This document shows positions 3,830 to 28,331 of a DNA stretch of 32,115 nt, one piece after another. This DNA is from a virus. Lineage: Duplodnaviria > Caudoviricetes. The stretch covers positions 1 to 32,115 of IMG/VR virus record IMGVR_UViG_3300020175_001501; one strand, 5' to 3'. A model generated the notes under the pieces. That model was given only the letters and a program-made list of their open reading frames with translations, made no database searches and was not told where the DNA came from. Every line of letters starts with the position of its first letter. The first letter of the stretch is position 1. Made by a program: the position numbers and the translations under genes.

Positions 3830-3831
3830 AT

Positions 3832-7807: not shown

Positions 7808-7809
7808 AT

Positions 7810-8256
7810 CTATTCTGGTAATACTCCAATATACGAAAGTGCTTCCATAAAATCACGTTCTCCAAATGTTTCCATTGTAGACATATCAGGTTTGTGGGTT
7901 AATTTATTGTCAACCTCTTTTAATTCATCTTCAGTTAAAGGTCTTGCTTTTACTGCTGCCCACTTCCATGTTGATTTATCTTGACCATTAGCAAAAACCA
8001 TTCCTAATTTTTCTTCATTTATAGTAGTAGGTAACCAAATAAGTCCCGTTTTTTCATCTACCCAAGATAAATCTTTATATAATTCAGGTAAAACTTCTAT
8101 TTGTTCTTCAAAAAAATCAGATCCTGGAGTCATTAAAGTGTTAGTCCAAAAACCACATGATAAACTAAAATAATTAGTTATATCTTTAGTAACTTCCATT
8201 TTATAACATAAATCTCCTCCACTTTTGGGGCAATTTATAATTTCATCGTAATCCAT
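7810..8256 (-). CDS. hypothetical protein (148 aa)
   Basis: Well-formed ORF in the operon; Cys residues near the N-terminus. Confidence 0.75.
   Translation of the reverse strand: MDYDEIINCPKSGGDLCYKMEVTKDITNYFSLSCGFWTNTLMTPGSDFFEEQIEVLPELYKDLSWVDEKTGLIWLPTTINEEKLGMVFANGQDKSTWKWAAVKARPLTEDELKEVDNKLTHKPDMSTMETFGERDFMEALSYIGVLPE
7826..7857 (-). promoter_or_regulatory. internal promoter upstream of GT2 7184..7807
   Basis: CGTG-N20-TATATTGG with TTCG. Confidence 0.6.
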
Positions 8257-8258
8257 AT

Positions 8259-9569
8259 TTATACTTTTTTAAGTTGTGGTATTTTTAATTCTGGTAATTT
8301 TAATTTTACTTGGTGTGAAAAATCAGGTAATACATTAGTTAAATGATTATCAATTAATTCACTCATTTTATCTCTACTAAAATTTGTTTTTGCAAAATAA
8401 GCTTGTCTTTTACCTTTACTTAATTTTAATTTATAATCTTTGTAAACACTTCTTAAAGATTCTCTAGCATAAACAGCATCAACTTGAAACCATTGGGCTT
8501 CTTGTTGTAACCAATCATTAGCAGCACTAGGATGAATATTTTCTAATGTACCTTGTACTAAAGTTGTAAATTCGGGATTTAAAAAATCTAAATGACCTGA
8601 CCATCCAGATGCTATAATAGGTTTTCCTGTTAGACTAAATTCTAATAATGGTCTACCATATCCTTCACCTTTAGTAAAACTTACCATAGATTTTATTTTA
8701 GGATGATTATATAAATCATTCATTTCTAAATCACTAAATTCACCATGTAACAAATAAATATTAGGAATTTTATGACCTTTATATTCTCTAATATATCCTT
8801 GTATTTGTTCTAAAATTGCTTCTTTACTAGTATAAGAATTATTACCTTTACTACATTTTAATATAAGAGCAGGCATTGCACTTCTATTTCTAAAGGTATC
8901 AATAAATTCTTTTATTAATACACCTACATTTTTTCTATCATGACCGTGTATTCCTTGCATCCAATGTCCTACAAATAAATAACAAAATTGTTCTTTTATA
9001 CTTGATAAATTAATACCTTCAGATTTTGGTTTAGATATTTTTTTATATAAATCTGTATTTACTCCTTCAAATATTACATTAATAGGTTTTTCTACTTTTA
9101 ATTCTCCTATAACTTGTTTAGAGTTTTTATCTCTTTTCTCAAATTTAACCCCCTCAAACATATTTTTTGCAAATTGAGAAGATACCCAAGTTTCATTCAT
9201 TCTATTTATACCTTCAACCCATTCACCTTTACATGAAGTTGCTTCAATACCAGCAGTACAACCAATATTATATTTTCCTACTGGTCTAAATTCATTAGGT
9301 ATTGTTATTTGCATCCAAATTTCTGGTTGTTTAGTAGCTTGTTTCATAGGATCATGTTTATAATCTAATAAAAATTCCCATTCAGGATGATCTTTACAAA
9401 AACCCCAAGGAGTTTCACCCCATCTTTGAGCTAATAGTATAACTTCGTATTTATCAGATTCTATAATTGATTTAACTACATCTCTACTTCTTGCCCCATA
9501 ACCACTATAAGTATCAAAAGGGCAACTAATTACAAATTGGGGTTTCATTTCTGTTTTTATTTTTTCCAT
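8259..9569 (-). CDS. glycosyltransferase GT4-like (GT-B)
   Basis: SGYG N-terminal loop, RKN, EGYGRPLLE (E-x7-E). Confidence 0.88.
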   Translation of the reverse strand: MEKIKTEMKPQFVISCPFDTYSGYGARSRDVVKSIIESDKYEVILLAQRWGETPWGFCKDHPEWEFLLDYKHDPMKQATKQPEIWMQITIPNEFRPVGKYNIGCTAGIEATSCKGEWVEGINRMNETWVSSQFAKNMFEGVKFEKRDKNSKQVIGELKVEKPINVIFEGVNTDLYKKISKPKSEGINLSSIKEQFCYLFVGHWMQGIHGHDRKNVGVLIKEFIDTFRNRSAMPALILKCSKGNNSYTSKEAILEQIQGYIREYKGHKIPNIYLLHGEFSDLEMNDLYNHPKIKSMVSFTKGEGYGRPLLEFSLTGKPIIASGWSGHLDFLNPEFTTLVQGTLENIHPSAANDWLQQEAQWFQVDAVYARESLRSVYKDYKLKLSKGKRQAYFAKTNFSRDKMSELIDNHLTNVLPDFSHQVKLKLPELKIPQLKKV

Positions 9570-11017
9570 TAGTATATAATTTTATGATTTAAAAAACTTG
9601 GTTTATGGGCAGTAGCATTAATAATTTCATATTTTTCTCTTGGTTTCCAAGTATCAAATAATTCATTAAATGCTTCCATAACTCTATTACCTTGATGTTC
9701 AGATGTAAATCCAGCTTCATCACTAATAGCCCATTCTCTACCTTTTAATCCTCTACTTTTTCTCTCTTTAGGATCCATATTATAAATTTCTCCTATTCTT
9801 TCAGCTACATCTTCAAAGCAACATCTATCATCATAAATGTAAGGTGTTGGAGGTGATCCTTGTATTGATCTTGAAGTTGGATATACTGGAAATGCCCATT
9901 CACCGTGTTTTTTATATGTACCTCTATGATTAGAAGGAACATCCGCACTAGGTGTAAACCATTTTCCATTTTCATCAACAAATCTCATTTGATCTTGCAT
10001 ACCACCTGTAGTATTAGCTATAACAGGAGTTCCTGATAATATAGCTTCAGTTAAAGTTAATCCCCAACCTTCATTAGATGTAATTAAAATTTGGGCATCA
10101 GCTATGTTATACAAATAATTTAACTGTTGAGCTGTTAGTTTACTATGAGAAAAAATAATATTCTCTGAATATTTTTCACCAAATAAAAAGTCATTTACTT
10201 TATATAAATCAGTTCCAGCATCAGTTGATCTTTCAGTATGTAAAATCATTTTACATTTTAAAGCATCTTCGTAAGGAAGTGTATCTAAAAATATTCTAAA
10301 AGCCATTAAACTATCAGGTATTTGTTTTCTTCTAATGTTTCTAGAATTAAAAAATAAGGTAAATTTAGGAGATTGACCTTTAAATATTGCTTGTTTAAAT
10401 TCTAAAAAACTTTTTTCTGATAGTTCTTCTTGAGACATAGGATGATAAATATCGTGGTTTAAACCATGTGGGATGTATTTAAATATCCTTTGTTTATCAT
10501 CATTATCTAATACTAATTTATTGATATTTACTGTTTGTTTTGAAATACCCATTAATAAATCACAAGCTTCATAATATGGTTTATTATACATTGGAGCTGG
10601 GTAATCATCCCATATATTTAAATAAGTTATAGGACAAATTTTTCTAATTTCACTTTCCATATCCCAAATATATCTAAAATACCTTGGATCAGTAATTAAC
10701 ATAATAGCATCTGGTTTTTCAATTTCTAATACTCTACGTAATACTTGAGGATCGCCATAAGCATGTACTGGGTATAAAAATACACTTGCATCTTCTATTT
10801 TTGCATTAAGATTAACATCTTTAGATATATCTAAATGTTTTCCAACTTCAGGGTGTTTTATAGCTCCTGCCATTTGTACCCAATTAAAGTGATGAGCTGT
10901 TTTTATAACTACTTCTTTAGCTACAGTAGCTACTCCAGAATGTACTCTAATATCATCACAGATTAATAGTATTTTCTTCCTTTTGTCTTTAGGAAGATGC
11001 TTAAAACTTTTATTCAT
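9569..11017 (-). CDS. glycosyltransferase GT4-like (GT-B)
   Basis: SGVA, IPHG, RNIRRKQ, EGWGLTLTE (E-x7-E), GGMQD. Confidence 0.9.
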   Translation of the reverse strand: MNKSFKHLPKDKRKKILLICDDIRVHSGVATVAKEVVIKTAHHFNWVQMAGAIKHPEVGKHLDISKDVNLNAKIEDASVFLYPVHAYGDPQVLRRVLEIEKPDAIMLITDPRYFRYIWDMESEIRKICPITYLNIWDDYPAPMYNKPYYEACDLLMGISKQTVNINKLVLDNDDKQRIFKYIPHGLNHDIYHPMSQEELSEKSFLEFKQAIFKGQSPKFTLFFNSRNIRRKQIPDSLMAFRIFLDTLPYEDALKCKMILHTERSTDAGTDLYKVNDFLFGEKYSENIIFSHSKLTAQQLNYLYNIADAQILITSNEGWGLTLTEAILSGTPVIANTTGGMQDQMRFVDENGKWFTPSADVPSNHRGTYKKHGEWAFPVYPTSRSIQGSPPTPYIYDDRCCFEDVAERIGEIYNMDPKERKSRGLKGREWAISDEAGFTSEHQGNRVMEAFNELFDTWKPREKYEIINATAHKPSFLNHKIIY

Positions 11018-13249: not shown

Positions 13250-13504
13250 TTACATTGATAGTGTTTCGTCCTTTAATTCTTCTCTTAGTTCTTTTGGTAA
13301 ACCTTCCTTTAAAATTTTACCTGAACTTGGGTCATAAAATACTGGAAGAGGCATTATAGCATCTTCATCTGTACCTGCAACAAATTTAGAAATTTTTCTT
13401 AAAATAACTCCTGATACAAATATATTCTTACCTTCTGAGTTAAGAATTGGAGTAGTTGCTTTTAAATCTACATTTAATTGAGGTTGTTGTTGTGATTGTT
13501 TCAT
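13250..13504 (-). CDS. hypothetical protein (84 aa)
   Basis: ORF between the clamp loader genes, translationally coupled. Confidence 0.75.
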   Translation of the reverse strand: MKQSQQQPQLNVDLKATTPILNSEGKNIFVSGVILRKISKFVAGTDEDAIMPLPVFYDPSSGKILKEGLPKELREELKDETLSM

Positions 13505-14418
13505 TACTTGTTAATTATTAAATTATTTATTAAACTCATTATATTAATTTCTTTATCTATTCTAAAATTAGCCTTATATTGATGGTCATTAATTAGAGCA
13601 GTTGCTGTACCTTCTTTATTGGGTAGAAATTTAACAGCGTTTTCGTATAAAAACCTAAATAATTCATCAAAATCATCAACATTAGCATCTGCTATTATTT
13701 GACGAATCTTGGTAAATGAAGGTTTATTTTGTGATAATTCAGATAATATTTTATCCATATAATTAGATGAAACTAATATTGTTTTATCTAATTTTAATGC
13801 ATTGTTTTGTGTAGATAATTGTATAGTATTAATACATTTACGTAAATCAGGGTAATATTGATTAACTAATGGTACTAAATCTTTTACATTATGCATTATC
13901 ATTTCTTCTTGTAAAATCCAATTTAAGTGTTTAGCAACATCTTTTTTAGTTGGAGGAACAATTTTAAGTACTTGACATCTTGATTGTAAAGGATCAATAA
14001 TACGTTCTACAAAATTACAAGTCATAATAAATCTTGTAGTACGTGAAAATGTTTCAATTATATTTCTAAGTGATGCTTGCGCTTGTATTGTAAGAAAATC
14101 CGCCTCATCCAAGATAACAACTTTAAGGGGTTTAAATGACGCAACAGACGCAAAACCAGAGACTTTATCCCTAATAGTTTCGATCCCACGCTCGTCAGAA
14201 GCGTTAATATAAATGTAATCACAATCTAAGTTTTTAATTATTAATTTTGCTAGTGTAGTTTTACCTGTACCAGCGGGTCCATAAAATATGAAATTTTGTA
14301 TATCATTCTGTTCTAAATATTTTGATATAACAGATTTTATATTTTCATTACCTACATAATTATCTAATTTAGTAGGTCTATATTTTTCTACTAGTAAACT
14401 ATTCTCCGTATTCACCAT
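13504..14418 (-). CDS. clamp loader AAA+ ATPase (RFC small subunit / T4 gp44-like)
   Basis: EKYRP, GPAGTGKTT Walker A, INASDERG, LDEAD Walker B, SRC motif. Confidence 0.95.
   Translation of the reverse strand: MVNTENSLLVEKYRPTKLDNYVGNENIKSVISKYLEQNDIQNFIFYGPAGTGKTTLAKLIIKNLDCDYIYINASDERGIETIRDKVSGFASVASFKPLKVVILDEADFLTIQAQASLRNIIETFSRTTRFIMTCNFVERIIDPLQSRCQVLKIVPPTKKDVAKHLNWILQEEMIMHNVKDLVPLVNQYYPDLRKCINTIQLSTQNNALKLDKTILVSSNYMDKILSELSQNKPSFTKIRQIIADANVDDFDELFRFLYENAVKFLPNKEGTATALINDHQYKANFRIDKEINIMSLINNLIINK
14058..14222 (-). CDS. candidate overprinted +1-frame ORF (54 aa, GTG start) inside the clamp loader gene
   Basis: Open +1 frame coinciding with a patch of atypical codons in the host gene. 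Confidence 0.3.
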   Translation of the reverse strand: MITFILTLLTSVGSKLLGIKSLVLRLLRHLNPLKLLSWMRRIFLQYKRKHHLEI

Positions 14419-14914: not shown

Positions 14915-16546
14915 TTACATCATTCCCATCATTGATGGGTCCATTGCTGGTTGTTGTTTATCATTGTTTTCATCTAAATCATTTACTACAGTACATTCTG
15001 TTAGTAAAACAGTACCTGCTACAGAAGCAGCATTTTCAAGTGCTAGTCTTGTTACTTTAGTAGGATCAATAATACCTGATTCTTTATAATCAATTACTTC
15101 TCCTTTATTAACATCTATCCCTGACCAATGATTATTACCTGAATCTACTAATTTGTATCTTCCAAATAACCCAGCTTCAACTTTATTGTATCCTGCATTA
15201 AGTAAAATTTGTTCAAATGGTTTACCACATGCTTCATATACAATTTTTGCACCTTCATTATCTATTTTTATACTTTCTCGGGCATAAAGTAAAGCAACAC
15301 CACCTCCTGGTAGGATTCCTTCTTCAATAGCAGCTTTTGTAGCATGTAATGCATCATCAACTCTATCTTTCTTTTCTTTTAACTCAATTTCAGTATTACC
15401 ACCAACATGAATAATAGCTACTCCACCTACAAACTTTGCTAATCTATTTTGTAACTGTTCTGTTTCATAAGGAGTTTGTGCATTATCAACTTGGCTTTGT
15501 AGATTATCAACTCTTTTGCTAATATCCTCTTCTGATCCTTTACCATCAACAATAGTTGTTGTTTCTTTTGTAATAGTAGCAGTACGAGCTTCACCAAACC
15601 AATCCCATGAAAATTTATCTAATTTCATGCCTTTTTGTTTATCAAATACTTGACCACCAGTCATTATAGCAATATCTTCTAATACTAATTTTCTCTTATC
15701 ACCAAATTCAGGTGCTTTAACAGCACATACATTAACAGTACCTCTCATTTTATTTACTATTAAAGTAGCTAATGCTTCATTATCAATATCTTCTGCAATT
15801 ATTAATAGTGATTTTCCTTCACTAGATACTGCTTCTAATATTGGTAATAATTCTTTTACAGAATTTAATTTTTGGTCTGCAATTAATACAACAGGATTTT
15901 CTAATACTGCTGACATTGTACTATTATCAGTAACAAAATAAGGGGATTTAAATCCTCTATCAAATTGCATACCTTCAACAGTTTCTAGATAAGTATCTCC
16001 AGTTTTTGATTCCTCAATATGAACAACACCTTCCATACCAACTTTTTCAAGTGCTGTTGCTATTAAAGTACCTACTTCTATATCATTATTAGCTGATATA
16101 GTTGCGATTTGTTCTAATTGACCTTCAGCTGATATATCTTCAGATATATTTTTTCTTAAAGTTTTAATTACTTCTTTAACTGCTTTATCAATATTACGTT
16201 TAATTTGTACAGCATTTTCATTTTTAGATAGATTGTCTAATCCTAAATTAATCATTTCTCTAGCTAATAATGTTGATGTAGTTGTACCATCCCCAGCTTT
16301 ATCTGCTGTTTGTACTGCTGCTTGTTTTACTAATTGAACCCCTAATTCTTCAGTTGGGTTTTTTAATGAGATGGATTTTGCTACTGTAACACCATCTTTT
16401 GTACTAGAAGGTATACCATCATCTCCTGCAATTACAACATTTCTTCCATTTGGGCCTAAAGTTGAAACAACAGCATCTGCTAGTATATTTATCCCTTTTA
16501 CAAGATCATTTCTAGATTCATCGCTAAATTGTATTTTTTTACTCAT
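14915..16546 (-). CDS. groEL: chaperonin GroEL
   Basis: TLGPNGRNV, TKDGVTVA, GDGTTT, EGMQFDRG, GIIDPTKV, Met-rich tail. Confidence 0.98.
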   Translation of the reverse strand: MSKKIQFSDESRNDLVKGINILADAVVSTLGPNGRNVVIAGDDGIPSSTKDGVTVAKSISLKNPTEELGVQLVKQAAVQTADKAGDGTTTSTLLAREMINLGLDNLSKNENAVQIKRNIDKAVKEVIKTLRKNISEDISAEGQLEQIATISANNDIEVGTLIATALEKVGMEGVVHIEESKTGDTYLETVEGMQFDRGFKSPYFVTDNSTMSAVLENPVVLIADQKLNSVKELLPILEAVSSEGKSLLIIAEDIDNEALATLIVNKMRGTVNVCAVKAPEFGDKRKLVLEDIAIMTGGQVFDKQKGMKLDKFSWDWFGEARTATITKETTTIVDGKGSEEDISKRVDNLQSQVDNAQTPYETEQLQNRLAKFVGGVAIIHVGGNTEIELKEKKDRVDDALHATKAAIEEGILPGGGVALLYARESIKIDNEGAKIVYEACGKPFEQILLNAGYNKVEAGLFGRYKLVDSGNNHWSGIDVNKGEVIDYKESGIIDPTKVTRLALENAASVAGTVLLTECTVVNDLDENNDKQQPAMDPSMMGMM

Positions 16547-16550
16547 TTTT

Positions 16551-16925
16551 TTATTTATTATTAATTTCAGTTAAATTTTTCTTATCTTCATTAGTTACCT
16601 CAGTTTCATCTAAAATATCAGATACATTTATCTCTGTAGCTACTTTAGCTAATACTTGATTTTCAGGTCCTACATAATATTCTTCACCATTAAATGGTAA
16701 TTTAGTAAAACCTTGAGTTGGTAAAACTACTTTATCTCCTACCTTTAAATGCATAGGAATTAGGTCACCATTTAGAGTATATCTACCCGTTCCGATAGCT
16801 ACAATTTCTCCAAATTCATTTTTTTCTTTACCCATATCAGGTACAATAATGTTACCGTGGATTTCTTCTTCGTTTTCAATAGGTTTAACGATAACCGCAT
16901 CAAATAGTGCTTCTAATTTATTCAT
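16551..16925 (-). CDS. groES: co-chaperonin GroES with acidic C-terminal extension
   Basis: LFDAVIVKP, GNIIVPD, GEIVAIGTG, LKVGDKV; start placed at ATG 16925 (MNKLEAL). Confidence 0.92.
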   Translation of the reverse strand: MNKLEALFDAVIVKPIENEEEIHGNIIVPDMGKEKNEFGEIVAIGTGRYTLNGDLIPMHLKVGDKVVLPTQGFTKLPFNGEEYYVGPENQVLAKVATEINVSDILDETEVTNEDKKNLTEINNK

Positions 16926-17226
16926 GATTAATATGATTTTTAATGTTATTTTCAATTGTTTTAAAACGATCTAAAAAATCGTTAAGGTTGGTATAATGTT
17001 CTTTAGTATGTAACTGTTCTTCACTTATTCTTTTTAATGCTTGTTCAAATTTTGCATGAAAGGTTAATGATTTTGAATAAGTTTTACTTTTTCCTGTAGA
17101 TCTAAAATGGTTTTTATCAGATGTTACTTTAATGTTAACTGTATAACAGTTTTCATCTTTAGTGATAAAATAAGGTTCCATCCATGGATCTTCAATAAGG
17201 GTTAGGGATTTAGGTTTTCTTGCCAT
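16918..17226 (-). CDS. hypothetical protein (102 aa)
   Basis: Start placed at ATG 17226 (MARKPKS), downstream of promoter 17253..17284. Confidence 0.75.
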   Translation of the reverse strand: MARKPKSLTLIEDPWMEPYFITKDENCYTVNIKVTSDKNHFRSTGKSKTYSKSLTFHAKFEQALKRISEEQLHTKEHYTNLNDFLDRFKTIENNIKNHINHE

Positions 17227-17252
17227 ATAACTTTTTATTATTAATATTGACG

Positions 17253-17284
17253 TCAATATACGAAAAAAATGTGGCTAGGACACG
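17253..17284 (-). promoter_or_regulatory. promoter for the ORF102-groES-groEL-Hc1 operon
   Basis: CGTG-N20-TATATTGA with TTCG; overlaps a 16-bp palindrome. Confidence 0.7.
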
Positions 17285-17291
17285 TTTTTTT
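17263..17291 (-). terminator. possible weak terminator after the sHSP gene
   Basis: A7-C-GTG-loop-CAC-A-T7 inverted repeat; the GC core is short. Confidence 0.35.
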
Positions 17292-17302
17292 ACAATTACT
17301 GT

Positions 17303-17725
17303 TTATTTAATTTTAATAGATTTTGGCTTAGCTTCCTCAGCTAAAGGTATAAAAATATCTAATAATCCATTTGTTAAAGATGCATCAATTTGTCCTAAAT
17401 CAAATTTAGGTGCAATTTTATATCTTAAATCAAATGATTTTTTAGATAAACCATTATGGATAGTTCCTTCATGGAATTTTTCTTCTTTTGGTTTTTTATA
17501 ACTTATTTTTAAAATATCTCCTTCAATATCGAGGATAACGTCTTTTTTAGTTAACCCAGTACAGGCAACTTCAAAATAAAGACCTTTATCATCAAAGTAA
17601 ATATTAAGGGGATGTGGTTGTTTTGAATTTAATGCTGGTGCAAACTGCGATTCAGCATTGAAGTGATTCCTAAATAGGATGTCGAAAGGACTAATATGTC
17701 TTTCTAAGATTTCTAATGTACTCAT
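17303..17725 (-). CDS. small heat-shock protein (Hsp20/IbpA-like)
   Basis: HPLNI, EVACTG, HNGLSKKSF, ASLTNGLLDI, PKSIKIK. Confidence 0.92.
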   Translation of the reverse strand: MSTLEILERHISPFDILFRNHFNAESQFAPALNSKQPHPLNIYFDDKGLYFEVACTGLTKKDVILDIEGDILKISYKKPKEEKFHEGTIHNGLSKKSFDLRYKIAPKFDLGQIDASLTNGLLDIFIPLAEEAKPKSIKIK

Positions 17726-18568: not shown

Positions 18569-18599
18569 ATAATATACGAAAGTTATTTTATATTTCAAA
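18569..18599 (-). promoter_or_regulatory. promoter, 5 nt upstream of the clamp ATG
   Basis: TTTG-N19-TATATTAT with TTCG. Confidence 0.75.
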
Positions 18600-19568
18600 G
18601 GAATTTAATGAGTTTACATAAGGGTTTAATGATAAATCCCATTCTAAATCATTAAAAAACCCTTCTAATTTATTTAATAAAATTGAATCAAATACTTTTT
18701 GTCTATCAGCATAATTATCTAAAAATTGTTTTACTTTTTTAGGCATATCATGATCAAAAAAAGCTAATGCTTCTATTTTATATGGATTATCTTTTAAGTA
18801 AATCCATTTTACTTTATCTGCTTGAGTCATTAAGTTATGTTTTTTATCTAATTGCCATAAACTTAATAGATCATTATATCTAATAGCTGCTCTAACAGGT
18901 GCAGGTGCTCCTAAATTTCTTTGTGTTTTGCCTTCCTTTTTCTGACTAAGGGGTCTAAGTATTTCAGTAAACATTTCACCTGCGGCTTTACGTCCAGCAT
19001 ATTTATTTAGTTTTTTAATCATTGTAGGATTTCCTAATTGTGTTAAAGGAATATCCCCATTTAATATTTTTTCTTTAAAAGTTTTAATCTGTTTAGTAAT
19101 ACTTTCTTCTTTAACTCCCTTTAAAGTTTGTTGTAAAATGTTATTGAAAAATTTACCTAAAATTGGTGGGAAATTTGCTTTCATAAACTCTAGACCTTTT
19201 ATATCTAAAGTTTCTTTTGATATACCTTCTGTTTTAGTAATCCATTGTGCATAACGTCTTGTAGCCCTAAAATAAGCTGCACGTATTACACATTCAGTTT
19301 TCATTTTTAGCCTATTTTCTCTAATTACCCCAAAACTTTTAATAACTAATCTTTTATAGTCTTCATTAATAACATCTTCAGTTATTTCAGCTAATTTTTC
19401 TGTAATATTATCTTTTTCAATATCACTAAATTTTTTATCAAAATCAGGGTAAATATGTTTTAATACAGGACCTCCGTGAAAATAATTTGAATCTGTGTCA
19501 ACATAAGCACATAAATTCTTATCATCTTTATTACAAATCCACCAAGGAGTATCTTCTAAATGTCTCAT
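18588..19568 (-). CDS. polB: family B DNA polymerase, C-terminal subunit (motif C palm + thumb)
   Basis: AYVDTDS (motif C), K.E, RRYA, IKGLE. Confidence 0.9.
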   Translation of the reverse strand: MRHLEDTPWWICNKDDKNLCAYVDTDSNYFHGGPVLKHIYPDFDKKFSDIEKDNITEKLAEITEDVINEDYKRLVIKSFGVIRENRLKMKTECVIRAAYFRATRRYAQWITKTEGISKETLDIKGLEFMKANFPPILGKFFNNILQQTLKGVKEESITKQIKTFKEKILNGDIPLTQLGNPTMIKKLNKYAGRKAAGEMFTEILRPLSQKKEGKTQRNLGAPAPVRAAIRYNDLLSLWQLDKKHNLMTQADKVKWIYLKDNPYKIEALAFFDHDMPKKVKQFLDNYADRQKVFDSILLNKLEGFFNDLEWDLSLNPYVNSLNSFEI

Positions 19569-19951: not shown

Positions 19952-20148
19952 TTGTTTGTTAGTGTTATTTGAAAAGTTATTTTATTAATTGTAAATCTAA
20001 ATACTCCTTGTTTTAGACATTTTTTAAACATAATTTCTTGTGACTCACTCCAAGACTCACTTAATTTTATTAATTCTTCTTTTTCAATTAATTTACCATT
20101 AGCTTTAATTAGCATATTTTGTCTAATTGATTGTTTTTTTAATGTCAT
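19948..20148 (-). CDS. hypothetical protein (66 aa)
   Basis: ATGA-coupled at both ends. Confidence 0.7.
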   Translation of the reverse strand: MTLKKQSIRQNMLIKANGKLIEKEELIKLSESWSESQEIMFKKCLKQGVFRFTINKITFQITLTNK

Positions 20149-21914
20149 ATTTCTAATTTTATTTCGTCCCTTAATACTTTATTTAAAAAGGTATTAGCAC
20201 ATAATGCACTTTCCTGTATAATTCTTTGTCCTGTTAGTGTAATAGCTTGGCTAATTAAAAAATCAGGTAATCCATATCTAAATGTTGGTAAAGCTGTAGC
20301 TCCATATAGTGAATTAAGTAAGATTTTCATTGTATACTGCATTAAATAATAATATTCACCTTCTTCTTTATTACCCGCTTTATAAGCATCCTTCATTTTG
20401 TTTTTATATACAACTCTTTCATCAAACCAAGTATTTAATATAGTTGATAAAACTGATTCTTTATCCTGTCTAAAAAATGCTCCATTAGCTGATACAGATA
20501 ATTTATTATCTTCTATATATTTAATTAATTTAGGTGGTTTAATAAAAGTTTGTTGACCTTTTATATTTCTAATTTCAATTTGCCTATTAGAATCCATTTC
20601 TTTTAAATCGTTAATAGCCAATCTACTATTACGTCTATCTTCATCTTTGATGTAACCGACTAAAGTTTCTCTACCTATGTTAAGTGACATTATTATACAT
20701 GGATATAGTGAAACTAAATCCAAATCAAACATATGATCATATAATCCAGCTTTAGGGCAAAATAAATAACCCCCAGCATATGTTTCTTTTTTACCTAATG
20801 GTTGTTTACCCTGATATGGTCTAGCAGGTGGGATAATATTTTGGGATAATAAATAAGCAGATATAGCTCCATCTTGAGTTACACTGTTTGAATAAACTTC
20901 ACTGTAATTGTGTTTGCCTTTATGTGCTAAGTTTTTTGTTAATGCTATATAATCTAACTTTTCATCTAATAATTTAAGTATTTCAACATCACGAAAATTA
21001 TATTCTATAAATTTATGCAAATCAGTTTCAAATAATTGATCTAAATTACCTTCATATTCAATTTTTTTAACACCAGCATATTTTTCACCAATAGCATCTA
21101 GTTTATAACTTGGTTCATCTTTCCAACTATATTTTTTATGTAAACGAATATAATCTAAAGATTCAATACCTACAATATCTACAAATTGATCTCTTTTAGT
21201 CCAACTAGAAACCCATTTACCTGTTTCTCTATGTTTCCACCAAGATGCTTTTTCAGTCTTAATCTGACCTGTAGGAGACAACATTTCAGCATAATCTTTA
21301 CCTAAAACCTTACATATTCTATAATATAAATAAGGAATATCAAAATAATCTGAATTATAACCAATTAAAATATCAGGATAATTAGTAATAAACATTTCAA
21401 TAAATTTACCAAGTAATTCTTTTTCGGTTTTACAGGGTATTATTTTTTTCTTTCTTTGTTTATCCCAAGTAGTAGTAGGTATTAAACCCTTTTTATCCCA
21501 TACTAAAATAGCCCATTCATCATCTTTTTTATCCCACCAAGCAATAGAAGTAATAGGCATAGGTGCATTTTCAATATATTCTTTAGTTAAAGCCCCTCCT
21601 ATTTCACACTCAATATCAAAAAACATTTCTCTATGGCCTGTAGAAGGGGTATCATTAGTTCCATATTTTTCAATTAAAAATTTCTGGTGAGGTTTTATAT
21701 CATGGTAATGTAGACCATGATCTTTTCTATTATAATCAGATGTTTTTCGTAACTTTTCACCTTCTAAACCAGTAAATTCACCATTAGGATCTTCAATATA
21801 TGAAGTATTTAACCATTCAAAAGAATTATAACCACCTTCATCCCATAAATTAATTTTATAGAGATTACTATCATATTTACCTATTCTTGTTGCATAACAT
21901 TTAATATAACTCAT
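20145..21914 (-). CDS. polB: family B DNA polymerase, N-terminal subunit (3'-5' exonuclease, motifs A and B)
   Basis: FDIE (ExoI), GYNSDYFD (ExoII), YNFRD (ExoIII), DLVSLYP (motif A), KILLNSLYG (motif B); ends before motif C. Confidence 0.93.
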   Translation of the reverse strand: MSYIKCYATRIGKYDSNLYKINLWDEGGYNSFEWLNTSYIEDPNGEFTGLEGEKLRKTSDYNRKDHGLHYHDIKPHQKFLIEKYGTNDTPSTGHREMFFDIECEIGGALTKEYIENAPMPITSIAWWDKKDDEWAILVWDKKGLIPTTTWDKQRKKKIIPCKTEKELLGKFIEMFITNYPDILIGYNSDYFDIPYLYYRICKVLGKDYAEMLSPTGQIKTEKASWWKHRETGKWVSSWTKRDQFVDIVGIESLDYIRLHKKYSWKDEPSYKLDAIGEKYAGVKKIEYEGNLDQLFETDLHKFIEYNFRDVEILKLLDEKLDYIALTKNLAHKGKHNYSEVYSNSVTQDGAISAYLLSQNIIPPARPYQGKQPLGKKETYAGGYLFCPKAGLYDHMFDLDLVSLYPCIIMSLNIGRETLVGYIKDEDRRNSRLAINDLKEMDSNRQIEIRNIKGQQTFIKPPKLIKYIEDNKLSVSANGAFFRQDKESVLSTILNTWFDERVVYKNKMKDAYKAGNKEEGEYYYLMQYTMKILLNSLYGATALPTFRYGLPDFLISQAITLTGQRIIQESALCANTFLNKVLRDEIKLEI

Positions 21915-22478
21915 TTATATAATGGTTTCAACTTTATAAAACTTAGCTAACTCTTCAGTTTTAAAAAATTGGGATAAATCTGGTCTAAAATAATTAATTG
22001 ATTTCATTACTTTTCTATCTCTTGATCTATAGACAATATACCTTCCTTTCGCAATCTTCTCAAAATGACAGGCCTCACCTTGTTCCTTACTTCTTTGGCT
22101 GACGGTCTGTATGGCTTCTTCTTCAGTTTTACAAGCTTTTGACATATTGCTTGCTTGTACTTCTTGATAGGCAGGCCATATCTTGCTTTTAAGGCCATGT
22201 AACATAGTACCGTTCCCAAGGGAAACATAAGTAATATCGCACAAAGCGTCCAAAACTTCCACAATGTCGCCTCGTTCGCAAGCTTCTTTATACTCTTCAA
22301 GTTCTTCGAGGATAAAATCATAGACAAATTGCCATTCTTTTTTAGCAGGGATTGTTGGTTCATAATTGTTGGGTTTATTAAAAGTGTTATTAAATCTTTC
22401 AACTTCATCAACAAAAGGGACAAGACCATTTGCTTCTGGGTCAAATACTTGGAAATCTAATTTTAATTGTTTACTCAT
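21915..22478 (-). CDS. all-alpha NTP pyrophosphohydrolase (MazG/PRA-PH/DR2231-like)
   Basis: EELEE, EVLDALCDITY, EV.ASNMSK, KVMKS. Confidence 0.85.
   Translation of the reverse strand: MSKQLKLDFQVFDPEANGLVPFVDEVERFNNTFNKPNNYEPTIPAKKEWQFVYDFILEELEEYKEACERGDIVEVLDALCDITYVSLGNGTMLHGLKSKIWPAYQEVQASNMSKACKTEEEAIQTVSQRSKEQGEACHFEKIAKGRYIVYRSRDRKVMKSINYFRPDLSQFFKTEELAKFYKVETII
22007..22429 (-). CDS. candidate overprinted +1-frame membrane protein nested in the MazG-like gene
   Basis: +1 frame open for about 145 codons (TTG 22444, first ATG 22429); hydrophobic segment followed by a basic tail; host codons avoid +1 stops. Confidence 0.5.
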   Translation of the reverse strand: MVLSLLLMKLKDLITLLINPTIMNQQSLLKKNGNLSMILSSKNLKSIKKLANEATLWKFWTLCAILLMFPLGTVLCYMALKARYGLPIKKYKQAICQKLVKLKKKPYRPSAKEVRNKVRPVILRRLRKEGILSIDQEIEK

Positions 22479-23070
22479 TATCTTTTTTATTTATTTTATT
22501 TTGGAACTTCATAAATGATCCTTCTTTATCATTTGTTAAACCTCCTACTGTATTTATTTTATCATCTTCTTCTGACCAAGGTCCTGGTTCGTCTGCTCTT
22601 TCCAAAAAATTTACAACATCAGGATCATTTACCCAATAAGCTTCAGCCGCATTAGGATCATCTATCTCGTCTTCTTTTGCTAAATAATCTTGTATAGCTT
22701 TACTATCACTTCTTTCCCAAGGATATACAATCCACTCATCACTAACTTCTTTAGCCCATAAAGTAGGAACAAAAGAGGAGGTATGAGGTTTATAATGTAA
22801 TACAGCATGATATAACCCAGGAGCTTTTTCTAACGTTTTTCCTGAATCACAAATATCATCTATTACTAAAGTATTTGTAAATACATTATTAACATAGGGT
22901 AAATTTAGTTTATGTGATATAATTACTGCAGGTATCAAACCTCCTCTTGCTAAACCGGTTACTGATTCTATTTGTGGGCATTCTAACATTATTTTTTTGC
23001 TTAAAAGATCTGTTAGTTGTTGTATATCATCCCAACTCAAATGTATTTTGTTATCTATTGTTACTGCCAT
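22471..23070 (-). CDS. type I purine phosphoribosyltransferase (Gpt-like) with acidic C-terminal extension
   Basis: LSWDD, ARGGLIPA, VIDDICDSGKT (PRPP loop), WIVYPWE. Confidence 0.9.
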   Translation of the reverse strand: MAVTIDNKIHLSWDDIQQLTDLLSKKIMLECPQIESVTGLARGGLIPAVIISHKLNLPYVNNVFTNTLVIDDICDSGKTLEKAPGLYHAVLHYKPHTSSFVPTLWAKEVSDEWIVYPWERSDSKAIQDYLAKEDEIDDPNAAEAYWVNDPDVVNFLERADEPGPWSEEDDKINTVGGLTNDKEGSFMKFQNKINKKDNE

Positions 23071-23762
23071 TATATATTATGTCCTCCGTTATTGATCTTT
23101 AAAGAATCAAAGAATTCCTTTCTTGCTAAATTAGTATTTTGTCTAAATACTCCTGATGCTTTTGTAGTTACCATTGCAGCACCTTGGTGCTTAACTCCCC
23201 TACAACTTACACAATTATGTGTACCTACAATAGTAACAATAACACCTCTATTACCTTCTGTAATTTTAGATACTGCATTATGAATTGCAGACGTTAATTG
23301 TTCTTGTATTGCACCCCTTCTACCAAATAATTCAACAATTCTATTTAATTTACTCAAACCAATTACTTGACCATTTTCTCCTGGTATGTAACCAATATGA
23401 ACTACCCCTCCAATTGTTTGGTGGTGATGTGAACACATTGAAGTTAATGGTATATTACGTTCTATAACTATACCATCATAACCATCTGATGGGAATGATG
23501 TAATTGGAGACATCGCTGTGTATCTACCAGCCCATAAATCATTTACATATGCTTTAGCTACACGTCTTGGTGTATCATTTGAATTAGGATCATTTTTCCA
23601 ATCACAATCTAATGCAGTTAGAAATTCTCCATAAGCTTTAGTAGCTTTTTTTATCATTTCTTCCTTTTGTTTATCATTTAAAGGAAAATTGGTTGCAACC
23701 CCATTTGCAAAACCTTTTTGTACAACTTCTAAATCTTTATGAATGTTTTTATGTTTGCTCAT
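23070..23762 (-). CDS. folE: GTP cyclohydrolase I
   Basis: TPRRVAK, SMCSHH, GLSKLNR, QEQLT, HNCVSCRG. Confidence 0.95.
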   Translation of the reverse strand: MSKHKNIHKDLEVVQKGFANGVATNFPLNDKQKEEMIKKATKAYGEFLTALDCDWKNDPNSNDTPRRVAKAYVNDLWAGRYTAMSPITSFPSDGYDGIVIERNIPLTSMCSHHHQTIGGVVHIGYIPGENGQVIGLSKLNRIVELFGRRGAIQEQLTSAIHNAVSKITEGNRGVIVTIVGTHNCVSCRGVKHQGAAMVTTKASGVFRQNTNLARKEFFDSLKINNGGHNI

Positions 23763-23886
23763 TTATATAAATTTTTAGTTTATCAATTAATACTAATACA
23801 TCGTCTGGGTCCATTGTTATAGCACAGCATGTATTTACATTTTCTTCTATATCCTCCAATATACGAAGGGCTTCTTGCTTATCCAA
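23749..23886 (-). CDS. possible small protein (45 aa, TTG start: (M)DKQEALRILEDIEENVNTCCAITMDPDDVLVLIDKLKIYINEQT)
   Basis: Not in the ORF track; fills the queE-folE gap and overlaps the folE start. Confidence 0.5.
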   Translation of the reverse strand: MDKQEALRILEDIEENVNTCCAITMDPDDVLVLIDKLKIYINEQT

Positions 23887-23887
23887 A
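23856..23887 (-). promoter_or_regulatory. promoter upstream of folE-PRTase-MazG-polB
   Basis: TTTG-N20-TATATTGG with TTCG. Confidence 0.7.
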
Positions 23888-23890
23888 TCT

Positions 23891-24673
23891 TTATACACAC
23901 CTCTCGGTATTAAATGCGATAATGTGTGAACGACCTGTAAATCTCCAACCTCTGTCTCTTACAAAATTCATTACTTCAGGGTATGATTCCATTAAAGATT
24001 CCCTAGTATCCCCAGCAGGCATAGCCCAAACTTTATTATCTGGTATACTACATTCTTTTATAAATGTTTCTACCTCTTCTATCATAGATAAATTCTTATC
24101 CAATACAGGTTTAATATGGTAATCAGAATGATATTCAATAGATTGTTTTATTGCTTCATAATTTAATCTTAATCTATTATGTGTTTTTATCATTTTTTCG
24201 TCCACATCTTTTCCTTGAGGAGTAACAGCACCCAAAACGGGAACGCTATTACTGAACTTAGGAGAAATGCTAAGAAGATTAATGGGATAATCAGTAGGGA
24301 GGAAATGAGATCCCTCAGTTTCAATAGTAATAAAAATGTTTCTTTCATGAGCAAAATGAGTTAATTCATTTACTAGTTTAGGATGCATAGTAGGTGAACC
24401 CCCAGTTAGCATCATTTCTTTAATATGAGGATGTTGATCGTAGGCATCTATAATATCTTGAAAAGAATATGTTCCTTTTTCTGGGTGGATACTTGTGTAC
24501 CAACTATCACACCATCCTCCTTCACCAAAGAAACATCTGTGAGTACAGCCTGTTGTTCTAACTACAATAGTAGGATAACCTTGTCTACTACCTTCTGATT
24601 GTACGGCTGTGTATACTTCTAATACGGGGAGGGTTTTATTATAGTCCTCTATTCTTTTTAACTGTTTGTGCAT
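23891..24673 (-). CDS. queE: 7-carboxy-7-deazaguanine synthase (radical SAM)
   Basis: E.Y..VQSEG...G.P...VRT.GC, CTHRC...WCDS, LTGG.P, IETEG, SISPK. Confidence 0.92.
   Translation of the reverse strand: MHKQLKRIEDYNKTLPVLEVYTAVQSEGSRQGYPTIVVRTTGCTHRCFFGEGGWCDSWYTSIHPEKGTYSFQDIIDAYDQHPHIKEMMLTGGSPTMHPKLVNELTHFAHERNIFITIETEGSHFLPTDYPINLLSISPKFSNSVPVLGAVTPQGKDVDEKMIKTHNRLRLNYEAIKQSIEYHSDYHIKPVLDKNLSMIEEVETFIKECSIPDNKVWAMPAGDTRESLMESYPEVMNFVRDRGWRFTGRSHIIAFNTERCV
24190..24348 (-). CDS. candidate overprinted +1-frame membrane peptide (52 aa) inside queE
   Basis: ATG-started MKETFLLLLKLRDLISSLLIIPLIFLAFLLSSVIAFPFWVLLLLKEKMWTKK; atypical host codons over this span. Confidence 0.4.
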   Translation of the reverse strand: MKETFLLLLKLRDLISSLLIIPLIFLAFLLSSVIAFPFWVLLLLKEKMWTKK

Positions 24674-24717
24674 ATGTTCATTTTTTTAAGTGGTTTTTCA
24701 TTCACTGTTATAACTTA

Positions 24718-25182
24718 TTATTCGCTGTAATAGGCAGCATTTTTTCCATGTTCCATGAATTTAACTTTAGTGACTCTGACTCTATTATCAGTTTCAGTTT
24801 TTACAAATTCATTTATATTACGATAAATATATTCAGCAAACTTCTCTGCACCAGTAGCTTCAATTACTCTTACTTGAGCTACTCCTGCTTTATCCATTTG
24901 TTGAAATGCTTTAAGATTAGGATCATCTTCTGCTACTATCAAAGTATGATCAAACATATAATCCATCCAAGCTTTAGGTTGTTTACCATCAATTAAGGTT
25001 TTGGCACGTTTCATTCCACCAAAATCCCAAACCCAATTTCTATCATCTAATTCACCCTCAAAGTAAACTTTAAATGATATACCATAACCATGTACAAATC
25101 TACAGTGTGTTGTTTCAGCTTTCCATTGACGAAACACTGTACTAAATCCGTCAAAAACTTTACTTGATTGAAATTTACCCAT
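24718..25182 (-). CDS. queD: 6-carboxy-5,6,7,8-tetrahydropterin synthase
   Basis: HCRFVHGY, WVWDFG, FDHT, GAEKFA, EH..N.A; que cluster context. Confidence 0.9.
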   Translation of the reverse strand: MGKFQSSKVFDGFSTVFRQWKAETTHCRFVHGYGISFKVYFEGELDDRNWVWDFGGMKRAKTLIDGKQPKAWMDYMFDHTLIVAEDDPNLKAFQQMDKAGVAQVRVIEATGAEKFAEYIYRNINEFVKTETDNRVRVTKVKFMEHGKNAAYYSE

Positions 25183-25420
25183 TATAAAAATTTAAAATTT
25201 GTTGTTCTGTTTGTAACCCAACTAACCTATTTTTTTCTGATCCATTTTCTAATAATACTAAAGTTGGGATGTTTCTTACACTATGTTTAACTGATAATTC
25301 ATTATCATTATCTACGTCTATTTTTTCGTAATTAATTTTATTACCTAAAGATTCTATAATAGGACCTAAGGTTTTACATGGACCACACCATGATGCACTA
25401 AAATAAAGTATTTTTTTCAT
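25175..25420 (-). CDS. trxA: thioredoxin
   Basis: WCGPC active site, VRNIPT. Confidence 0.93.
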   Translation of the reverse strand: MKKILYFSASWCGPCKTLGPIIESLGNKINYEKIDVDNDNELSVKHSVRNIPTLVLLENGSEKNRLVGLQTEQQILNFYNG

Positions 25421-25435
25421 ATTTTTTATTTATTG

Positions 25436-25636
25436 TTATACTAATTCTTCTATTATTCCTATTACTTCACTTAATATAAGTAAAGCTGTTGCAGTAACCA
25501 AACTAAAAGGGATAAAGAAATACCCTATTATTCGAACACCAGATTTAAAAAAACTTATTTGTTGATGTAATTTTGGATCTGGTAGTTTATCTATTTTTGA
25601 TTCTGTTATATAATCTTCTCCTTTATAATTTTTCAT
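25436..25636 (-). CDS. small membrane protein
   Basis: Hydrophobic C-terminal half. Confidence 0.7.
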   Translation of the reverse strand: MKNYKGEDYITESKIDKLPDPKLHQQISFFKSGVRIIGYFFIPFSLVTATALLILSEVIGIIEELV

Positions 25637-25640
25637 AATT

Positions 25641-26465
25641 TTATTTTTCCCATTTTTCTAATAAAGTTATTACGTTCTCTCTTGCTACTTCCCAAGTAAC
25701 TGGTCCTGTTTCATCTGCATAATCTATAGGATCAGGTCTTCCTAATTTTATAAATGCTTCAATACGTTCTACTGATGAAGCTGATTTATAATCTGAATAC
25801 CATTTCCAAGCATTTGTTTCTGGTCTGTGGTAATGTTTAATTGGTTTATATGATGTGTGTGTTCTTTTATATACTTCATCAAATTCAATATCTAAAACAC
25901 CACATAAATATTCTCCATCTTGTAAAATACCAAATTTATCAGTATCTAAATAAGGGGTAAAATATCCTACTCTTTCATGATCCCAATTTCCTTCTCTAAA
26001 TGCTTTATCATCTGCATCTCTAAATTCTTGTCTACAATCAGGATAAACAGCATGATCACCTGCGTGAATACCCAGGGCAATATTACAATTTTCTTCTGTT
26101 TTATTTGCTATAGATAAAGCTACTGCTTGTGTAATAGAAGCAAATATTTTATTTCTATTAGGTACAACTGTTTCTTTCATATTATCTTGTTCATAATGTC
26201 CTTCAGGTACATCATCTCCACCTTCAACTAGAGCTGAATCTAGTAAACCTACTAACCCGTCTAATTTAATTTGTTTATAATTTACTTTATGACCTTTATC
26301 TGATAGGAAATTAATTAGAGATTGAGCTTTTTCTAATTCTACTTTGTGTTTTTGACCATAGTCAAATGAAATACCTGTTACAGTATCATATTCACTGATA
26401 GCTCTTAACAATAGGGTGCTACTATCCATTCCACCACTTAACGAAACTACTACATGTTTTGCCAT
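25641..26465 (-). CDS. queC: 7-cyano-7-deazaguanine synthase
   Basis: SGGMDS PP-loop, FDYGQKH, VPNRN, YPDCR. Confidence 0.93.
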   Translation of the reverse strand: MAKHVVVSLSGGMDSSTLLLRAISEYDTVTGISFDYGQKHKVELEKAQSLINFLSDKGHKVNYKQIKLDGLVGLLDSALVEGGDDVPEGHYEQDNMKETVVPNRNKIFASITQAVALSIANKTEENCNIALGIHAGDHAVYPDCRQEFRDADDKAFREGNWDHERVGYFTPYLDTDKFGILQDGEYLCGVLDIEFDEVYKRTHTSYKPIKHYHRPETNAWKWYSDYKSASSVERIEAFIKLGRPDPIDYADETGPVTWEVARENVITLLEKWEK

Positions 26466-26864: not shown

Positions 26865-27056
26865 TTATTTATTAAAAATTTCTTGTACTCTAAAATATTC
26901 ATCTAAAAATTCTCTAGTATATAAAAATACTTCTTGATTATTAAATTCTAATAATCTTTTTTTATAAGGTTGTTTTTTAAGTATAGCATAAGCATTAACT
27001 TTTAATCCTGTGCCATTTTTGTCTGCATGACCTGTGTAATCATAAAGTGATATCAT
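26865..27056 (-). CDS. hypothetical protein (63 aa)
   Basis: ORF coupled (ATGA) to the TGT-like gene. Confidence 0.7.
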   Translation of the reverse strand: MISLYDYTGHADKNGTGLKVNAYAILKKQPYKKRLLEFNNQEVFLYTREFLDEYFRVQEIFNK

Positions 27057-27853
27057 AATTGTTTTTGTTTTAAATTATTAATTATTCTAAATTGTGTTGT
27101 ATTATGTATTATGTCTTCATATTGAATGTCTTCAAATTTAACATCAAAATGATCATTCATATTTGCTTTTGGTTTATTATCTAAGCCATGATCTTTATAT
27201 CTTATACCTTCTAATGCTGCCATTACAGGATTAGAGGTATCAATTGATTCTATTCTTAGATTATTATCATACCATCCAAATTCTTGTGGTATTGAACATC
27301 CTAATAAATGGAATTTAACATCTTTTAAATGTTTTAAATTTAATAATCCCTGTACAAATCTTATTCTACCTAATGCTTTACCCATGTCTTCATTTGAATG
27401 AGGAAAAAACTCATTATACCAGGTAGCACCATAAGAAACACATAATTTTTCATAACCTAAATTTTGTAATAGATTAGCACATAAATATGCTTGATTTTTA
27501 TCTTCACCTTGGATTACTGCTGTAATTTTAGTTTTTTTAGGATATTTAAATTGTTTCCAATATTTGGCTTGAGCTGCTGTTTGACCACATTGCATCCAAA
27601 CATCAGGTACAATAAATTCATCAGGTTTTAATTCATCAATCCAATGTAATAATCTTTGACTATTATATGCTTTTCCTAATTCATGAAGTGAATTGTCCAT
27701 AATAACATATCTACCTTTGTCTCTGGCATCTATAAAATACTGTTTATATTCTTCATCTTGATCTAATAAATGAGGTAAACAATAATCATAATCATTAAAC
27801 TCAGGTGATGCTGTTAGAAGACATCTTGGTACTTCGTGGCTAATTTTAGGCAT
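27053..27853 (-). CDS. divergent TGT-fold transglycosylase (DpdA-like candidate)
   Basis: Ordered motifs IMDNS, PDV, AVIQG, HLLG, SIDTS parallel the TGT/DpdA DSG, D, VQG, H.LG, S.DSS motifs; upstream of the que cluster. Confidence 0.7.
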   Translation of the reverse strand: MPKISHEVPRCLLTASPEFNDYDYCLPHLLDQDEEYKQYFIDARDKGRYVIMDNSLHELGKAYNSQRLLHWIDELKPDEFIVPDVWMQCGQTAAQAKYWKQFKYPKKTKITAVIQGEDKNQAYLCANLLQNLGYEKLCVSYGATWYNEFFPHSNEDMGKALGRIRFVQGLLNLKHLKDVKFHLLGCSIPQEFGWYDNNLRIESIDTSNPVMAALEGIRYKDHGLDNKPKANMNDHFDVKFEDIQYEDIIHNTTQFRIINNLKQKQL

Positions 27854-28331
27854 ATTTTCTATTTATTTTAATTTTTCTTCTGTATTTATCTTCTATAATA
27901 TAATAAAGATCTATTAGTTCTCCACTACATTTTAAACATTCTTCAATAACTTTTTCTTTTGTAATATCAAAATATTTTTCAAAATGTTTGTATAATGATT
28001 CTAATTTACTATTTTCATCTTTTTCAAAATCTTCAAGTAATCTTTTTCTACGAGCTTTTAAAAGTCTTACTTTTTCACTAGTATGGTCAAGTTCGCCTTT
28101 TTGTTCTATTTGTAATTCATCTAACATATGTTCACATAAATATGCTTGTAATTGATAACTTGATAAATCAAAATCACCATTAAGTATTTTATCCCTAAAA
28201 TCAGCTTTATTTGGAAGTGGTTTGTTTTTTTCATCATACCATCTCCACCACATAAATCTATTATAGTTTAATTTTCTATAATTAGATAGTTGTTTTTTTA
28301 TAGTTGATTTAGGTATACTAGGATTAAACAT
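27846..28331 (-). CDS. hypothetical protein (161 aa)
   Basis: ORF in the operon. Confidence 0.75.
   Translation of the reverse strand: MFNPSIPKSTIKKQLSNYRKLNYNRFMWWRWYDEKNKPLPNKADFRDKILNGDFDLSSYQLQAYLCEHMLDELQIEQKGELDHTSEKVRLLKARRKRLLEDFEKDENSKLESLYKHFEKYFDITKEKVIEECLKCSGELIDLYYIIEDKYRRKIKINRKYA

Follow-up and report, generated by a model that had tools for sequence, protein, structure and literature searches.

In phage phiX174, gene E lies in the +1 frame of gene D, and in phage lambda Rz1 is nested in Rz, likewise in the +1 frame. The nested phage genes that we found in the literature are lysis genes of tiny genomes or spanin pairs. Overprinting itself is well known, and viral genes that arose de novo in this way are described as more narrowly distributed than the ancestral frame, unusual in their codon usage and quicker to diverge (Sabath et al. 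2012, PMC3494269).

Here we analyse a 32,115-nucleotide stretch of DNA (hereafter the window), a 32-kb AT-rich phage fragment whose minus strand carries nearly all genes, in which a MazG-like enzyme gene appears to enclose a second gene in its +1 frame. The arrangement resembles that of phiX174 E and the single-gene lysis genes of ssRNA phages in that a small gene sits out of frame in an older one (PMC5039524; 10.1101/2023.10.16.562596), and, like E, the nested product would have one hydrophobic helix with a Pro and W-x-x-W and a domain after the helix (PMC5039524). It differs from E in belonging to a tailed phage of ~160-177 kb with no evident space limit and in having a metabolic enzyme as its outer gene; the nested product lacks RWxxW, its helix is internal and it shares no sequence similarity with E. 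The locus is like lambda Rz/Rz1 in that one gene lies wholly within another in the genome of a tailed dsDNA phage, but its outer gene is an enzyme rather than an i-spanin and lies outside a lysis cassette, and the nested product, whose helix starts at residue 35, has no N-terminal lipobox signal. We therefore rejected an Rz1-type embedded o-spanin, given the missing lipoprotein signal and an outer gene that belongs to PF01503.

Results

The nested frame lies in a MazG-like gene beside a 7-deazaguanine cluster

The features on which the analysis turns are as follows.

20145..21914, minus strand: family-B DNA polymerase (PolB), N-terminal part, downstream of the host gene (PF00136, PF03104)
21915..22478, minus strand: host gene, a MazG-like/PRA-PH NTP pyrophosphohydrolase of 187 aa (PF01503, phrog_671)
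22007..22363, minus strand: putative nested +1 gene, ATG 22363 to TAA 22007, 118 aa (conserved ATG, stop avoidance)
22364..22444, minus strand: open extension up to a TTG, lineage-specific; holds an A-rich, SD-less stretch before the ATG
22190..22261, minus strand: nested residues 35-58, W[KR]FW...P-x-G-T...L, predicted Pro-kinked membrane helix
22121..22174, minus strand: nested residues 64-81, basic, likely amphipathic helix
22471..23762, minus strand: phosphoribosyltransferase-like gene and FolE, upstream of the host gene (Pfam and PHROG matches)
22471-26465, minus strand: 7-deazaguanine cluster of QueC, QueD, QueE and FolE, with the phosphoribosyltransferase-like gene, adjoining the MazG-like gene
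27053-27853 and 27846-28331: two unassigned genes beyond the 7-deazaguanine cluster

The host protein matches PF01503 (E = 3e-10) and phrog_671 (E = 1e-28), in agreement with its initial annotation as MazG-like, and it returned no PDB sequence match at E <= 0.001. Six acidic residues, E58, E59, E62, E74, D77 and D81, which we take to be the metal-binding motif of the MazG-like/PRA-PH family, occur in every one of 67 open alleles (defined below). Judged by family profile and acidic residues together, the host frame is an all-alpha MazG-like/PRA-PH pyrophosphohydrolase, and it is widespread.

Elsewhere in the window, the family-B polymerase is apparently split into two minus-strand parts (20145-21914, 589 aa; 18588-19568, 326 aa) separated by two small genes (66 aa and a 127-aa DUF6165 protein). 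The window also encodes a chaperonin (Cpn60) with an Hsp20 (14915-17725, minus strand), a clamp-loader-like ATPase (13504-14418) and a block of glycosyltransferase, epimerase and methyltransferase genes (1129-11017). A scan for sigma-70 promoters found 16 sites against 15.1 expected, which is chance level. Contigs from RNA runs cover the gene, although strand and frame are unreadable from contigs.

The +1 frame is open far beyond expectation

The +1 frame of the 187-aa gene is stop-free for 149 codons, while among 49 other genes tested in the window the best such run reaches 59 codons. The preliminary description had reported this openness over most of the gene, and its TTG-initiated ORF is present at 22007..22444 on the minus strand (145 aa), as is every atypical codon pair that it cited. 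Recoding the protein with genome codon usage never attained 149 codons (0/20,000 runs; maximum 84), nor did codon shuffling (0/20,000; maximum 142). Permuting synonymous codons within the gene, the check suggested at the outset, attained it in 5/20,000 runs and uniform synonymous usage in 38/20,000. This last figure, together with a host-gene GC3 of 0.27 against ~0.13 for the window, is what favors the reading that there is no gene at all, the frame having been left open by higher GC, motif avoidance, RNA structure or an antisense gene.

We turned to homologues for comparison. Among the best 80 of 553 viral loci, which were examined first, 78 had a +1 frame open for 120-149 codons. Further scans that took closed and divergent alleles as seeds, together with three genome contigs and the phage immuto, brought the set to 199 loci, which, minus 60 duplicates plus the window, gave 140 distinct alleles. 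These divide into 108 that are open over host codons 39-139, 30 that are closed (1-9 stops) and 2 that are truncated, proportions that mirror the choice of queries and not natural frequency. Given its own protein and the codon usage of closed alleles, 6.1 stops are expected per open allele, with P(none) <= 0.0009 for each, figures to be read in light of the open alleles being mutually related. Clustering at 85% nucleotide identity gives 33 clusters, 13 of which hold open alleles, and the open alleles diverge to 66%.

Stops return at the borders of the overlap. Across the 67 open alleles collected first, a +1 stop is used at 206/309 possible sites over host codons 1-38, at 0/855 over codons 39-146, at 8/926 over codons 39-156 and at 224/349 in the downstream part. 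GC3 follows the same borders, being 0.35 within the overlap and 0.20 outside it in open alleles, as against 0.18 and 0.19 in closed ones, and the +2 and antisense frames retain stops (means 10.3 and 2.1-5.6). The suspicion that similarly biased homologues would carry +1 stops was not borne out, as closed homologues have background GC3, and recent acquisition of the whole gene from a foreign source of higher GC was rejected because GC3 is raised solely inside the overlap. An antisense gene was rejected as the cause because the antisense frames keep their stops.

Two alleles depart from this division. L112 (host gene near 3001) has an open +1 frame and the full motif with ATA in place of ATG, while its host protein groups with closed alleles, and it may be a recombinant or an intermediate. 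L165 (host gene near 3001) has a single +1 stop and no ATG over codons 39-139 and is possibly a decaying or incipient allele.

Selection acts on the +1 protein

We next counted changes between paired alleles, using 54 disjoint open pairs and 14 closed ones. Among host-silent changes in open pairs, those radical in the +1 frame were found at 245/4852 opportunities and conservative ones at 264/2498 (odds ratio 0.45, nominal p = 9e-18), compared with odds ratios of 0.82 in closed pairs (p = 0.2) and 1.17 outside the ORF (p = 0.3); since the sites are not independent, these p-values should be read as nominal. Stop-making changes occurred at 0/542 opportunities in open alleles versus 15/146 in closed ones. 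Host-changing transversions were sevenfold commoner if silent in +1 (46/3037 vs 31/14554), an effect absent in closed alleles. Transitions silent in both frames were found at 36/176 sites versus 387/4172 for those silent in the host only, so the constraint is not on the nucleotides themselves. RNA structure was likewise rejected as the cause of the open frame: none of 22 predicted pairs was compensatory, folding gave z = +0.97 and there was no Rfam match. Motif avoidance was rejected on the selection, GC3 and frame comparisons taken together.

The absence of a gene is thus largely refuted, and we consider it most improbable: the high GC3 is found inside the overlap only, the other frames keep their stops, no RNA-structure signal appears and doubly silent sites vary freely. 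The initial reading was of a real overprinted membrane protein gene. Its first half stands on conservation, co-occurrence of the ATG, stop avoidance and amino-acid selection, all of which indicate that the +1 frame is almost certainly a real overprinted gene; its membrane half has more moderate backing, as described below.

The nested gene probably starts at an internal ATG

The length of 145 codons first given to the nested gene is probably wrong. Its TTG at 22444 is not conserved among homologues; downstream of it, 67 open alleles show +1 stops at host codon 26 (57 alleles) and at codon 23 (24 alleles), and we therefore rejected it as the start of the family. An ATG at 22363, formed by host TAT-G at codon 39, is present in 107/108 open versus 5/30 closed alleles. 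The TAT at host Y39 occurs in 108/108 open alleles, compared with 111/204 Tyr codons outside the ORF. From this ATG the product measures 103-129 aa among open alleles, and 118 aa in 61/108 of them and in the window.

The region of the ATG is less folded in open than in closed alleles (-2.4 vs -4.9 kcal/mol), and AAA stands at -13..-11 in 107/107 open alleles and also in 24/30 closed ones. A start-context matrix built from 45 window starts, 5 of which have an SD-like word, did not single out the ATG, with 30% of 816 background ATGs scoring at least equally, and it scored open and closed alleles alike. The TTG scores above the ATG in this matrix, so the nested product may have an N-terminal extension in the window lineage.

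We also considered that the +1 frame might be entered from the host frame by ribosomal or transcriptional slippage, yielding a fusion protein. Of the 70 database proteins that match either frame, 40 match both, several with a junction near an A-run (host codons 46-48). Junctions fall at scattered positions, and some of the proteins change frame a second time. This is the pattern expected of indel errors, and we read the two-frame proteins as such errors. Gene callers, moreover, report the +1 frame mainly where the host frame is broken; the A-run is merely A6 in the window; and the ATG tracks the open frame, which is open upstream of the run too. Slippage is accordingly very unlikely, and a conserved slippage site was rejected on the short run, the scattered junctions and the open frame upstream.

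The predicted product has a conserved hydrophobic span

With initiation at the internal ATG, the first 33 residues of the nested product are polar and basic, followed by W[KR]FW and a 22-residue hydrophobic span with P-x-G-[TM]. Of the 108 open alleles, 95 have W[KR]FW, 102 have PxG[TM] and 106 have L[KR]x[RK][YF]G; 13 lack W-x-x-W, and P48, 10 residues past the second Trp, is kept in 102. The basic helix after the span has conserved I66, Y69, I73, L77 and L80, of which L77 occurs in 107/108 open vs 12/30 closed alleles and L80 in 99/108 vs 10/30. The mean hydrophobic moment of residues 64-81 is 0.39 in open and 0.25 in closed alleles, with 0.29 for the window's own. Cysteines lie at 41, 54 and 74, and none aligns with a Cys of P0058, the candidate relative discussed below. 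An AF2 model of the product is all-helix, with four helices and a break at 47, at low confidence (pTM 0.25).

The hydrophobic span overlies the catalytic helices of the host, where most host third positions are near-fixed. The maximum KD19 of the window product is 2.25, and closed alleles attain up to 2.23; equal hydrophobicity arose in 922/5,000 stop-free genome-codon recodings, and against the host-frame null the span has P = 0.18 under genome codon usage and 0.004 under uniform usage. The 27 K+R of the product compare with 26.7 expected from the host frame, 20 of them after the helix and 6 before. The TM-like segment and the K/R-rich tail that were pointed out originally are thus both present, but under genome codon usage neither clearly exceeds what the host frame alone would give. 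Key residues are another matter, as recodings rarely give both Trp (1%) or Pro48 (2%). On this evidence and that from P0058, the nested product is probably a membrane protein. Searches of Pfam, PHROGs, NCBIfam, PDB sequences and the Atlas returned nothing above noise and named no target.

A membrane protein in a phage invites comparison with lysis, whether by inhibition of cell-wall synthesis (phiX174 E), regulation of a holin or cationic disruption of the outer membrane (phiKT gp28). The out-of-frame embedded layout is that of single-gene lysis genes (10.1101/2023.10.16.562596), the single helix with its conserved Pro and W-x-x-W recalls the Pro21 kink and RWxxW of E (PMC5039524), and cationic helices recall phiKT gp28 (10.1101/515445). 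We nevertheless regard lysis as a rather unlikely role, since RWxxW is found in 0/108 alleles, ~33 residues precede the nested helix where that of E is N-terminal, the gene sits in a nucleotide/replication operon, close relatives lack it and no solved structure matches in sequence. In the parts of the annotation of immuto, a cultured carrier, that were covered (58 and 34 of 243 features), no holin or spanin is named, too partial a record to weigh.

The protein p16.7 of phi29 is a membrane anchor for phage DNA, and the nested product could similarly tether phage DNA or the replication or DNA-modification machinery through its basic tail. A helix with a strongly basic helical tail behind it would suit such an anchor, as would placement between the Que/FolE genes and PolB, and selection reaches into the tail (radical 51/1582 vs conservative 113/1046). 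Its K/R content, on the other hand, is imposed by the host frame, the tail varies in length (product 103-129 aa) and is reduced to ~29 residues in P0058, and the nested gene is dispensable in close relatives. We hold the anchor to be about as improbable as lysis.

Open and closed alleles alternate at one locus

The nested frame is younger than the host frame because distant relatives are closed: five full-length alleles at 52-58% identity and L193 are closed in +1, as are the distant homologues of phages PTm1 and JQ and of two jumbo phages, with 10-14 stops each. Mean pairwise identity is 65% for the nested protein vs 85% for the host protein. In its narrower distribution, atypical codons and faster divergence the younger frame is like the de novo genes of Sabath et al. 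2012 (PMC3494269); it is unlike those described there in residing in a large tailed phage, in having closed alleles at the same locus and in having a candidate stand-alone copy.

Open and closed alleles share the same gene neighbourhood, PolB following the host gene in 64/107 open and 15/30 closed loci, and they are interleaved on trees of FolE (70 open, 20 closed) and PolB (72 open, 23 closed). For the closed allele L020, the tree places the PolB as sister to that of the window's group (support 1.0). We infer from the interleaving either allele exchange or repeated loss; trees of the host protein are weakly supported with a very long outgroup branch, and gains and losses are not countable on them. 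Because closed alleles share the neighbourhood and interleave in this way, the pattern suggests an accessory role for the nested gene. L020 and L024 each pair a closed MazG-like allele with a PolB near-sister to the window's, which points to exchange of alleles between phage backbones.

The same comparison bears on whether the product is a partner or regulator of the enclosing enzyme, either inhibiting the MazG-like hydrolase or tethering it to the membrane. Co-inheritance is obligate and co-transcription expected for genes so placed, and the products of nested Rz/Rz1 form a complex (PMC5295617). The enzyme persists alone, however, in 30 alleles and in 4/4 distant phage homologues, and P0058 is apparently apart from the enzyme frame, making a partnership unlikely.

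A search of 50,697 phage records yielded a single cultured carrier, Flavobacterium phage vB_FspM_immuto (Immutovirus; 4 records). Its unannotated nested ORF of 117 aa is 55.5% identical to that of the window over the full length and lies in the orthologous host gene, immuto26A_63, whose protein is 75% identical to that of the window, within a 7-deazaguanine cluster; immuto differs in having a family-A polymerase where the window has the split family-B one. Since this sole cultured carrier grows on Flavobacterium sp. LMO8, the host of the window's phage group is likely a Flavobacterium-like bacterium. Across the alleles collected, a large group of aquatic phages appears to maintain the open, selected 118-codon frame. 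A second nested +1 ATG ORF in immuto (L280:10131-10406; immuto 100131-100406), Q/H/T-rich and 91 aa long within the tail spike gene, is probably a shadow of a repetitive protein.

P0058 is a candidate copy freed from the overlap

A profile search of 1.84 billion representative proteins returned 26, including P0058, a 74-aa protein (E = 2.6e-7, hhalign probability 98) that lies on a 78-kb contig, has another record on a 4-kb one and stands for a single cluster. P0058 retains AKKExSWRFW, LPFGT, LKARY and IxKYK, and in its other frame it is unable to encode 20/36 conserved host residues, D77 and D81 included, all 36 of which are encoded by each of five nested alleles tested. It scores 44.9 bits against the open-allele profile, where the best of 2,000 segment-preserving shuffles reaches 15.5, and 11.8 bits against the shadow of closed alleles, close to what the best shuffle attains. 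Because the motifs are kept, the host residues unencodable and the profile score far above shuffles, P0058 is likely a descendant of the selected +1 protein released from the overlap. Its helix is more hydrophobic than the nested form (KD19 2.70) and its tail basic, with ~29 residues; free of the host frame, it would be the best support for a membrane role.

Searches for the DNA of P0058 went through 52 viral and 588 metagenome candidates and found no relative, and motif scans gave 2 and 73 loci, all at chance level (best 18 bits). Its Atlas matches were all under 0.9, further searches found no other stand-alone relative, and no second copy was present in 5 phage records or the fetched loci.

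Discussion

The open frame, its conserved ATG, the avoidance of stops, purifying selection on the +1 protein, its younger age and its presence in a cultured phage are established. They argue for a real, unannotated overprinted gene that is shorter than first read and that probably encodes a membrane protein. How it works is more tentative. A +1 frame overprinted on the older MazG-like enzyme gene would be translated by SD-less initiation at the internal ATG of an operon mRNA shared with FolE, the phosphoribosyltransferase-like gene and PolB. The 118-aa product would be a single-helix inner-membrane protein with its basic tail inside, and the face formed by W-x-x-W and P-x-G-T could be a binding surface. 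Through it the product might bind a host membrane protein while phage DNA is being replicated, and so work as an accessory effector of the host takeover or exclusion type. Taken whole, this mechanism is conceivable but doubtful, the target and effect being its least certain part.

In a wider view, to which we give not quite even chances, a membrane effector was born de novo over the active-site helices of an enzyme, spread among a large family of aquatic phages as a swappable allele and later escaped as the free-standing P0058. If so, the closed, nested and freed states of an overprinted gene, and with them its whole life cycle, would all exist in nature, and the product would represent a new family of phage membrane proteins that a cultured phage would make open to testing. 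A selected 118-codon gene within a metabolic enzyme of a ~160-kb phage would mean that annotation misses protein families in large phages, and would also show overprinting to be more than a response to scarce space. Gene birth by overprinting becomes directly testable here because the nested gene can be silenced without altering the enzyme, and the closed alleles, the candidate freed copy and the cultured carrier immuto all bear on such tests.

The gene pair and the protein family are apparently new, neither being found in the largely open-access literature searched, outside which a virion or infection proteome of immuto may exist; the word 'overlap' is absent from the main text of the preprint on immuto DNA modification. 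Within the putative family, one divergent open group (L159-L162, L197) retains the ATG and lacks W-x-x-W, with R and/or E in the span and a KD19 of 1.47-1.74, and may represent a second function or a separate origin.
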